Shown here in pieces: positions 47,400-50,418 of a stretch of 64,000 nucleotides of DNA; position 1 is the first letter of the stretch, and every line of letters starts with the position of its first letter. Position numbers and translations under genes: made by a program. Under the pieces are notes generated by a model. It ran no database searches. It saw only the letters and a list, made by a program, of their open reading frames with translations, and was not told where the DNA came from. The DNA is taken from NCBI RefSeq assembly GCF_056712565.1, contig NZ_CM160072.1, one strand, 5' to 3'.

Positions 47400-48047
47400 G
47401 CGGATGTATTGCCCCAGTTCACGCTGTTCGGCGCGCGGCAGATAAGGCAGTTCACCAATGAGCGGTGCCGGAAGTTTTTTACCGAGCACATCAATGATTT
47501 CCGCATAATGCGCCAGTCCTGGGTTGATTCGGTTAGCCACCCAGCCAATGAGCGGCAGCCCGTCGTTGGCAATCGCCTGAGCTGTTAGCAGTGCATGGTT
47601 AATGCAACCTTCCTGAATACCGACAACCATCAACACCGGCAGTTGTTCCTGCACCACCCATTCAGAGAGCGGACGCAAATCATTCATCAGACTGCGCCAG
47701 CCGCCAGTCCCTTCTACCACGACATGATCGACTTTATCGGTCAGGTTTGCCAGGCCGTTTGAAATGAGGGTGTAATTGATTGGGCAACTGTGCGCCACGC
47801 TACTTTCTTCTTCGCTTAACGCGATAGGATTAACTGCTTCATAAGGCAGTTCGATGGTTGAAACACTCTGCAACACCAGGGCATCTTTATTACGCAGCCC
47901 TTCGGGTGTCTCTTTGCTCCCCTTCGCTACGGGTTTATATCCCGCAACCGTTTTTCCCTGGGAGGCTAACGCTTGTAGCAATGCGCGGGAAACCACCGTT
48001 TTCCCTACAGAAGTGTCTGTACCGGTAATAAAGAAACGCTTCAGCAT
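47352..48047 (-). CDS. bioD2: Dethiobiotin synthetase paralogue BioD2 (YnfK), 231 aa
   Basis: P-loop GTDTSVGKT; start MLKRFFITG. Confidence 0.85.
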
Positions 48048-48171
48048 CACTAACTCCACCGTTATGCTTCACAAATATAAACCAGGAAAATAATTAACCT
48101 TGAAAGTCTAAGTTATGCTTTCCTGGCCCAAATTGAGATAGCGCAAATTTTGGTAGAACAGTTAAAAAATG

Positions 48172-49390
48172 TTAACCCTGCAACAGACGAATCAACAAAG
48201 AACCGTTATACATCGCGTCTTTTACCAGCGCAGCGCCTGCCATCGTGCCCTGGTTAGAAAACTGAGTACTCTCAACGCTAATGTGCTGACTATACGCAGG
48301 AAGGGCCTGCTGACGGATGCTGTCCGAGATAACTGGGAAGAGGATATCTGCCGCTTTACTTAACGGTGAGCCAATCAGTATTTTTTGTGGGTTAAAAATT
48401 CACCATGATGGCAAGAATGCGACCGACATGCGCGCCTACCCCGGTAATGATGTCTTTTGCCAGTAGATCGCCGCGCAATGCCGCCTGACACAATGAGTCC
48501 ACGGTTAACGGTTGTCCATGTAACATCGAGCTCATGGATTGATTGAGACGCAGCTGTGCCAGCTCAAGAATACTGTCCACACTGGCGATGGTTTCGAGGC
48601 AACCGTGATTCCCGCAATAACAGCGTTTCCCATACGGGTCGACCTGTGTGTGGCCTATTTCCACGAGGCTACTGCTGCCTGCGTGTAGCAGATGACCATC
48701 GGTAATGACGCCCGCCCCCACGTTGTGATCGATAACCACCTGAATCACATCGCGCGCCCCGCGTGAGGCACCAAACAAGGCCTCAGCCATCGTCCATGCG
48801 CTGATATCATGCTGAATATAAACCGGTACGCCGGTATGCTGCTCCAGCGCCTCGCCGAGCGGCATCTCTTTTACATCCTCGTAGAACGGCATGCGATGTA
48901 CAATACCATTTTCCGTATCAATAATTCCCGGCAAGGTTATGGCAATCGAAGTCAGACGCTCAAGTTTTTTCTGGTGGCGGATAAAAAACTGATCGATATG
49001 GGAAATGATACGATCCAGCAATGGCGAGTCATCTTTTAACGCCAGTTCCTGCGACTCCTCCACTACCAGTTTGCTGCTCAGATCGCGCAAAGCAAGGAAA
49101 ATCTCCCCGCGACTAATGCGCAGAGAAAGATAGTGCCAGGCTTCAGTTTCAACCACCAGCCCCACTGCCGGACGGCCACGGTTCCCCGCTTCTTTGATTT
49201 CCAGCTCTTGCACCAGGTGTGCTTCGAGCATCTCACGGACAATTTTAGTGATACTGGCAGGAGCCAGTTGCGCCAGACGGGAAAGATCGATACGCGAGAC
49301 TGGACCAAGCTGATCAATCAGGCGATAAACCGCGCCCGCGTTGGTCTGCTTTATTTGATCAATGTGCCCAGGCTGATTTTCAGCAACCAC
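48172..49390 (-). pseudogene. mlc: mlc (dgsA) global PTS repressor, frameshifted: 332-codon N-terminal ORF (48392-49390) plus intact out-of-frame C-terminal 73 codons (48172-48393)
   Basis: N-frame ends ...GRILAIMVNF-stop; the adjacent frame reads NPQKILIGSPLSK...LLIRLLQG-stop, matching the Mlc C-terminus; junction is the T-run at 48392-48397; 331+2+73=406 codons points to a 2-bp deletion. Confidence 0.8.
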
Positions 49391-49403
49391 CGCATACTCC
49401 CTA

Positions 49404-49424
49404 TATTTTCGCGCTCCGAAATAA
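49404..49424. promoter_or_regulatory. Palindrome TATTTTCG-N5-CGAAATAA 14-34 nt upstream of the mlc start; candidate Mlc auto-operator
   Basis: 8-bp arms seen in sequence; Mlc/NagC-type AT-rich arms with a CG core; assignment is inference. Confidence 0.4.
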
Positions 49425-49524
49425 TCTGTAGGCTATGGTGAAGCACTTCAATACGTGTCGTCAAATTTTTACTTAGGCATGTGATTAACAGCACATTTTT
49501 CGGGCTTTTTCGCTGAAATTTCCC

Positions 49525-50418
49525 TCACCTGAGAGCATTCAGCAGATGAATACGAAAGTTACGCGCAGCCGGACTTTGTTCATGATGTTTCGGCCAGACC
49601 AACCACATTTCAGAAACCGCATCCTCTTCAGCAATCGGCACCCAGCGCATTTCGTTGAGCTGAACACGTTTAAATGACGCAGGCAAAATTGAAACACCCA
49701 GACCAGCGGAAACCAGACCGATGATGGTCATTGCCTCACCCACCTCCTGAGTGATGACGGGCGTCAAATTGTAACGTCTCATCAGCCCGAGAATATCGTC
49801 ATACAGCCCTGTTCCGACGTGCGGATCAAAAAAGACAAAGGGTTCTTTCGCCAGTTCAGCCAGCGTTACACTCGGGTTATTTGCCAGGGGATGATCGTGC
49901 GGGATCATCGCCATAAGCGGTTCATGGACGATGACTGCGTGTTCAAGCGTCTCCGGTAACGCTGTGTTACGCAGCAATCCCATATCCAGCGTTCCTTCAA
50001 TGAGCGGAGCGATTTGCTCGCGAGTGTTCATTTCGCGGGTTTGTAAATGGACATCGGGATAATCACGGCGAAACAGCGATAACGTATCGGACACCGCCCG
50101 AATAAAAGGAGCGGACGAAGTAAAACCAATGCGCAACTCCCCCGCTTCGCCCTGATGCAGCCTTTCAGCGCGAGCGGCAGCATCATCCACCATAGACAGG
50201 ATTTGCCGACTATCTACAAGAAACTGTTTTCCTGCTTCCGTCAGCAATACACTGCGATTGGTCCGTGCCAGCAGTCGGGCACCAATTTGTTGCTCCAGCG
50301 CCTGAATCTGCTGACTTAGCGGTGGTTGCGAAATATTCAGGCGGGCAGCGGCACGCCCGAAATGCAGCTCTTCTGCAACAGCGACAAAGTAACGCAGATG
50401 ACGAAGTTCAAGATTCAT
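49525..50418 (-). CDS. ynfL: LysR-type regulator YnfL, 297 aa
   Basis: LysR HTH; divergent from ynfM. Confidence 0.85.
   Translation of the reverse strand: MNLELRHLRYFVAVAEELHFGRAAARLNISQPPLSQQIQALEQQIGARLLARTNRSVLLTEAGKQFLVDSRQILSMVDDAAARAERLHQGEAGELRIGFTSSAPFIRAVSDTLSLFRRDYPDVHLQTREMNTREQIAPLIEGTLDMGLLRNTALPETLEHAVIVHEPLMAMIPHDHPLANNPSVTLAELAKEPFVFFDPHVGTGLYDDILGLMRRYNLTPVITQEVGEAMTIIGLVSAGLGVSILPASFKRVQLNEMRWVPIAEEDAVSEMWLVWPKHHEQSPAARNFRIHLLNALR

Follow-up and report, generated by a model that had tools for sequence, protein, structure and literature searches.

A 2-bp deletion in mlc (dgsA), probably strain-private and inactivating, in a phylogroup B2, ST95-like Escherichia coli genome

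The gene for Mlc (mlc, also dgsA), the global repressor of the phosphotransferase system (PTS), is read in two pieces in the 64,000-nt stretch of DNA analysed here (the window; contig NZ_CM160072.1 of RefSeq assembly GCF_056712565.1), which raises the question of whether the source strain carries a broken regulator or whether the assembly alone makes it appear so, and of what a protein cut at this point could still do. On the minus strand the frame opens with GTG at 49390-49388 and closes with TAA at 48394-48392 after 332 codons ending ...GRILAIMVNF. The C-terminal 73 codons and their stop codon (48174-48172) are intact in the +1 frame at 48393-48172, with a translation that opens NPQKILIGSPLSK and closes ...LLIRLLQG*; in full, the 73 codons and stop read NPQKILIGSPLSKAADILFPVISDSIRQQALPAYSQHISVESTQFSNQGTMAGAALVKDAMYNGSLLIRLLQG*. 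Both frames, as given in the initial annotation with their coordinates, agree with the open reading frame list and the translations, and its sum of 331+2+73=406 codons for the undamaged gene is reproduced by the alignments described below. The features of the broken gene are as follows.

48392..49390, minus strand: 5′ part of mlc, 332 amino acids, made up of 331 wild-type codons, one frameshifted Phe codon and a premature TAA (open reading frame list)
48394..48398, minus strand: deletion junction, a T5 run, at mlc nt 995-996, codon Leu332 (alignments to four genomes)
48392..48394, minus strand: premature TAA made by the frameshift, with C as the next base, in the context UUU UAA C
48172..48393, minus strand: orphaned 3′ part of mlc, 73 codons (N334-G406 of intact Mlc) and the native TAA, in the +1 frame

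The locus is the mlc gene by score, synteny and motifs. Against NF049930.1, the NCBIfam equivalog model for Mlc, the 332-amino-acid product scores 600.5 bits (cut-off 530) over profile positions 1-330 of 405, and the second piece matches positions 333-405 of the same 405; the intact B2 allele of Mlc scores 741.4 bits. The model for the NagC paralogue gives the 332-amino-acid product 330.6 bits, under the NagC cut-off of 650. The gene neighbourhood is the canonical one, ynfL - mlc - bioD paralogue (bidA/ynfK) - clcB, as annotated in UTI89, ATCC 11775, Z0117EC0054 and K-12 MG1655. With the three close B2 genomes the window aligns collinearly over 32-36 kb, at an identity of at least 99.97 %, and gene order around mlc is the same in K-12 MG1655. 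The winged helix-turn-helix is kept in the 332-amino-acid product, as are the RGRP linker motif (...AGNRGRPAVG...) and the zinc ligands H247, C257, C259 and C264 (within ...EIGHTQVDPYGKRCYCGNHGC...), both motifs being taken from PMC4288165 and PMC11863449. The whole profile (1-405, with the C-terminal helices at 381-406 and Gly406) is split over two frames instead of lying in one, which leaves the product of the locus short of a complete Mlc.

Base-level alignments to UTI89, ATCC 11775, Z0117EC0054 and K-12 MG1655 each contain one gap within the gene, of 2 bp, bearing out both the identification of mlc and the 2-bp deletion proposed initially; the comparison with K-12 mlc that had been suggested as a check puts it in codon Leu332, at nt 995-996 by K-12 numbering. 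As it is a fixed difference from all the relatives compared, coincidence does not enter into it. The wild-type codons AAT TTA TTT AAC (N L F N) are replaced in the window by AAT TTT TAA C (N F stop), and on the gene strand the junction is AATTTATTTAAC in the wild type and AATTTTTAAC in the window. The indel is not divisible by three relative to the intact orthologues and creates a premature stop. The lost bases are T and A (or A and T) from TTTATTT, and since one T and one A have gone from a site of that composition, the event is not a change in homopolymer length. The shift had been located in a T-run at 48392-48397; it does lie at a T-run, but at one of five T at 48398-48394, so that the coordinates were off by one to two bases. 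Nor was this run there beforehand: the intact gene reads TTTATTT, and the T-run at 48398-48394 is a product of the deletion that is absent from the intact gene.

Apart from the gap, mlc in the window differs from K-12 mlc by 21 substitutions with a single amino-acid change, L122S, and residues 1-331 of the product are otherwise those of K-12 Mlc. Relative to the three aligned close B2/ST95 genomes, the 2-bp deletion is the sole difference within the gene, and the sequence on either side is unchanged close to it. The orphaned 3′ part is thus undecayed, being the same as in the intact B2 allele, and the event is therefore either very recent or artefactual.

To judge between a recent event and an artefact it matters how the rest of the window compares with its closest relatives. 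These comparisons are best explained by an E. coli source strain of phylogroup B2 and ST95-like type, whose nearest genome is Z0117EC0054 (NZ_CP098206.1), followed by other ST95-like genomes. Positions 1-32516 of the window are 100 % identical to Z0117EC0054, and between 31517 and 64000 there are three differences, namely the mlc deletion and the positions 44877 and 58009. The last of these lies on the Z0117EC0054 side, because the window agrees there with both UTI89 and ATCC 11775. Position 44877 is a synonymous G>T change in ynfH (Ala123, GCG>GCT), 3.5 kb from the mlc deletion, and has no 100 % match among 5,329 complete genomes; apart from the deletion, nothing else in the window is private to it.

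To look for the deletion allele elsewhere, we compared an 81-bp segment having the mlc junction at its midpoint with 5,426 complete E. coli genomes, of which 5,367 gave a match. None of these 5,367 matched at 100 %, and among the matches listed every best one carries the same 2-base gap relative to the window. The exact junction 34-mer had 0 matches in metagenome contigs and in species-representative genomes, while a control wild-type 36-mer was present in 86 metagenome contigs. At the protein level, the exact 332-amino-acid product is missing from a collection of about 15 billion proteins, some of them from public read sets that had been assembled independently, and the intact B2 Mlc protein occurs there on at least 1,000 contigs. 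Across the databases searched the mlc deletion allele is a singleton, a status that fits a private mutation and an error alike.

We consider the best explanation to be a very recent, strain-private 2-bp deletion that inactivates Mlc and leaves its regulon derepressed, and assign to this reading as a whole a probability of about 0.65; that the deletion is real in the DNA, rather than present in the assembly alone, we infer from comparison of the sequences and hold to be likely, at about two-thirds. The principal alternative is an assembly or consensus error, in which the strain would have an intact 406-codon mlc and the gap would have been introduced into a low-complexity, A/T-rich stretch at the base-calling, polishing or assembly stage. 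We regard such an error as unlikely, although with a weight that is far from negligible. It would account for an allele that is a singleton in every collection searched when the wild-type 36-mer is readily found (the 86 metagenome contigs), and for a truncated protein that is missing even from the collection that draws on independently assembled public sequencing runs. The position of the other private difference, 44877, just 3.5 kb away, would also be compatible with an assembly that is weak in this neighbourhood, and error-like mlc indels do exist in some low-coverage metagenome contigs, for example L036 and L068.

Weighing against an error of this kind is the nature of the change, which is no homopolymer-length miscall given that an A is lost as well from TTTATTT, and the state of the surrounding sequence, in which an error-prone long-read or flow-chemistry assembly should have left further discrepancies. 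The window holds 279 homopolymer runs of at least 5 bases, 92 of at least 6 and 18 of at least 7. The run made by the deletion aside, all 279 runs of at least 5 bases are equal in length to those of Z0117EC0054, including a T9 at 46090-46098 that is shared with that genome. No further indel was found across the 64 kb relative to this nearest relative, and the assembly is therefore not prone to homopolymer errors. The signature of a homopolymer artefact is accordingly absent at both levels, the intact site not being a homopolymer and no other run being discrepant. It had been proposed that the split could equally be a homopolymer sequencing error; an error does stay among the explanations, but an equal footing for it is overstated in view of the TTTATTT site and the agreement of the 279 runs. 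These observations lower the case for a homopolymer error specifically and affect other kinds of consensus error less.

The T9 tract, in the dmsD-clcB intergenic region upstream of clcB, varies in length among the genomes compared, with T9 in the window and Z0117EC0054, T8 in UTI89 and ATCC 11775 and T7 in K-12 MG1655. Elsewhere in the window, at about 17376-23551 (mapped from L004:8966-15141), the B2 genomes hold between eamA and marB a block encoding a GntR regulator, PTS IIB/IIC/IIA components of the lactose/cellobiose type, a carbohydrate porin and a 6-phospho-beta-glucosidase, with short pseudogene remnants (ydeI, 2-oxo-tetronate isomerase) nearby. In K-12 marB and eamA are adjacent, and the block looks like a lineage-specific sugar-uptake island. 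In the protein collection, Mlc (406 amino acids) falls, at 90 % identity, in a cluster that also lists many LysR-family proteins of 297 amino acids (YnfL, the product of the neighbouring gene), which looks like a clustering artefact, perhaps due to fused or mis-called bridging sequences.

If the deletion is real, its consequence depends on what the last part of Mlc does. The Pfam ROK domain (PF00480) spans residues 88-389 and is cut by truncation at 332 of 406, so that the product ends without the final ~58 residues of this domain and without the two helices at the C terminus (381-394 and 395-406). In the sugar-kinase/actin-like fold, the region lost from the ROK domain contains a conserved strand, NPxxIxxG, as well as the G-A-A helix. 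Seitz et al. (2003) reportedly found that Mlc lacking 18 C-terminal residues forms non-repressing dimers. Solved structures of Mlc (3BP8, 1Z6R and 9SRT) cover residues 1-406. An AlphaFold2 prediction for intact Mlc, made from a shallow alignment of 9 sequences, had a mean pLDDT of 39.9 and was too poor for any structural conclusion. According to PMC11863449, the C-terminal helices are packed against the DNA-binding domain, and both EIIB(Glc) binding and optimal DNA binding depend on them; the C terminus including Gly406 is required for EIIB binding.

Mutants of K-12 bracket the truncation on both sides. In ptsG-deleted adapted strains, mlc C904T (Q302stop) and del1101G (a frameshift at codon 367) are associated with fast growth and with a fermentation profile that, like the growth, is the same as that of mlc::IS5, mlc::IS1 and a 6-kb deletion (PMC6989600, Table 1); expression of manX and manY is markedly raised in the mlc::IS5 mutant (PMC6989600). 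As both Q302stop and the codon-367 frameshift are null-like and codon 332 falls between them, the truncation in the window is expected to be null. The initial prediction that the truncated protein is likely non-functional thus gains from the loss of ROK sequence and helices and from the null-like behaviour of the bracketing truncations: judged by these K-12 mutants and by the missing part of the ROK domain, the 332-amino-acid product is most likely inactive and the allele a null.

One could conceive of the opposite outcome, in which the deletion is real and the fragment keeps repressor activity, acting as a constitutive repressor insensitive to EIICB. The fragment retains its DNA-binding domain, RGRP linker and zinc ligands, and the need for the C terminus including Gly406 in EIIB binding would make any residual repressor non-inducible. 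We nevertheless think this extremely unlikely, given that Q302stop and the codon-367 frameshift act as nulls (PMC6989600), that DNA binding already suffers when just the C-terminal helices are removed (PMC11863449), and that core elements of the ROK fold are gone as well.

A second way of retaining function would be through the ribosome. The sequence A AUU UUU UAA C at the junction resembles the "shifty stop" of RF2, and a +1 slip there would yield a 405-amino-acid Mlc lacking only Leu332, making the allele a leaky hypomorph; the candidate shift site of about 30 nt reads CATCATGGTGAATTTTTAACCCACAAAAAA, and the +1 product would contain the peptide ILAIMVNFNPQK. The layout of an RF2-type site is indeed present, in that AAU UUU UAA C combines a P-site codon able to re-pair in the +1 frame, a stop codon and a 3′ C. 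On slipping from UUU to the overlapping UUU, tRNA-Phe would re-pair perfectly and the NPQK... frame (AAC CCA...) would be restored exactly. A C after the stop is the 3′ context conserved at prfB sites, and in a minority of species the RF2 shift takes place at UUU_U (PMC5009743). In addition, a GGUGA lies 2 nt upstream of the UUU and could pair with the 3′ tail of 16S rRNA.

We nonetheless rate leaky expression as highly unlikely. UUU_U is far less efficient than CUU_U (PMC5009743), and the Shine-Dalgarno-like element is weak and off the canonical 3-nt spacing. RNA folding revealed no notable structure around the site (z = -0.07). The stop itself is UAA, which is read by both release factors. 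The site occurs in the window alone, as an accident of a private mutation, with neither the conservation nor the Shine-Dalgarno element at about 3 nt that mark the RF2 type, and repression would not be recovered at frameshifting levels of about 1 % or below. The mlc junction is thus not a member of the RF2-type programmed frameshift family, and leakiness is a possibility. A more elaborate version, in which a real deletion with an accidental shifty stop gives a tunable hypomorph set by termination efficiency, and/or a pathoadaptive null in an extraintestinal lineage raises PTS capacity for glucose and mannose, seems to us comparably improbable.

Two other routes to a second product were considered and set aside. 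Re-initiation giving a C-terminal fragment finds no in-frame ATG, GTG or TTG start in the orphan frame for an ORF of at least 40 amino acids. Transcriptional slippage requires a longer run than the T5 at the junction, which is too short for it.

Upstream of the gene, the sequences through which Mlc would control its own expression appear undamaged. The 150 bp preceding the mlc start are the same as in K-12 MG1655 and contain, as a further feature of the window,

49403..49425, minus strand: candidate Mlc operator quasi-palindrome of the mlc promoter region, ATTATTTCGGAGCGCGAAAATAT, sequence intact and in agreement with the published criteria

The Mlc operator has been described as a 23-bp quasi-palindrome with TT/AA at -6,-5 / +5,+6 and A/T at +/-11 (PMC4288165). 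Read from 49425 to 49403 the sequence has every one of these characters, and the palindrome noted initially at 49404-49424 is thereby supported as a putative operator, with the matching 23-mer at 49403-49425. A promoter scan of 47950-49600 returned 4 promoter-like sites against 1.8 +/- 1.2 in shuffled sequences, at most a weak enrichment, and a terminator scan of the same interval returned 2 terminator-like sites against 1.7 expected. Within this interval no terminator-like site was found between mlc and the downstream bioD paralogue.

Under the preferred reading of a real, inactivating deletion, translation would shift at codon 332 and stop at once at TAA. The 332-amino-acid fragment would be misfolded or unable to form an active oligomer, leaving a null allele. 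In the absence of repressor the operators at ptsG, ptsHI-crr (P0), manXYZ, malT and mlc would be unoccupied, and expression of the Mlc regulon would be constitutive, with sequestration by EIICB(Glc) having no further effect on it. Derepression of ptsG, manXYZ, malT, ptsHI-crr and mlc itself is thus a likely outcome; ptsG, manXYZ and malT all lie outside the window.

Should the deletion be real, the source strain would be a natural Mlc-deficient E. coli of the extraintestinal pathogenic (ExPEC) type. Constitutively raised PtsG, ManXYZ, MalT/LamB and general PTS proteins would be expected, together with faster uptake of glucose and mannose, more overflow acetate and no induction by glucose through EIICB sequestration, all of which is relevant to phenotyping or modelling of the strain. 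For annotation, mlc here is best flagged as a frameshifted pseudogene and not as two ORFs. The allele opens no new question, Mlc, its regulon and its null phenotypes being already well characterised.

Altered copies of mlc were also seen in metagenome contigs, in a survey with 60 full-length copies of the gene. L060 lacks 8 bp (nt 952-959), L066 has lost 21 bp in frame and L059 a total of 18 bp through in-frame deletions, and in L079 codon 300 is an amber stop with another change beside it. The scattered 1-bp indels of L036 and L068 occur in contigs of about 2x coverage and look like assembly errors. In three contigs (L019:1108-2328, L061:904-2124 and L064:2474-3694) codon 369 carries an amber change, Q369amber (CAG>TAG), also present in AB1157 (L092:444-1664). 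A 98-bp stretch with this change has a 100 % match in only 11 complete genomes, nearly all of them recognisable K-12 laboratory derivatives (among them AB1157, HB101 twice, RR1, HST04, JM83, RP437, ET12567 and a dam/dcm strain), and the three metagenome contigs probably derive from laboratory-strain DNA.

Set beside known systems, the allele has several counterparts. The Q369amber allele of the AB1157 lineage (AB1157, HB101, RR1, JM83, RP437, ET12567) is likewise a C-terminal truncation in viable strains, and is annotated in RefSeq as a pseudogene with "internal stop". It is a nonsense substitution that removes 38 residues and is found in 11 complete genomes, whereas the allele of the window is a frameshift and a singleton. 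Strains of that lineage carry the amber suppressor supE44, by which Q369amber may be partly suppressed. The RF2 gene prfB, with its site CUU_UGA_C, shares with UUU_UAA_C of the window the arrangement of a re-pairing P-site codon, a stop and a C, although the window has the weaker UUU, the stop UAA, no canonical Shine-Dalgarno element at a spacing of 3 nt and no conservation, and the similarity is one of resemblance only. The closest parallel is with mlc nulls of K-12 selected in the laboratory (Q302stop, del1101G, Q217stop and IS1/IS5 insertions; PMC6989600), in which the same gene terminates prematurely in its ROK/C-terminal part and the same outcome is expected, namely derepressed manXYZ, ptsG and malT. 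Mutations that inactivate Mlc are described as an adaptive class in glucose-limited chemostats (PMC2763269), and inactivation of mlc also arises after loss of ptsG (PMC6989600), which makes a selected origin of the deletion in the window plausible. It is a distinct mutation (2-bp deletion at nt 995-996) in a B2/ST95-like, ExPEC-type background, and is most likely an ordinary null allele of a known gene, differing from these K-12 nulls only in the exact change and in the background in which it occurs.
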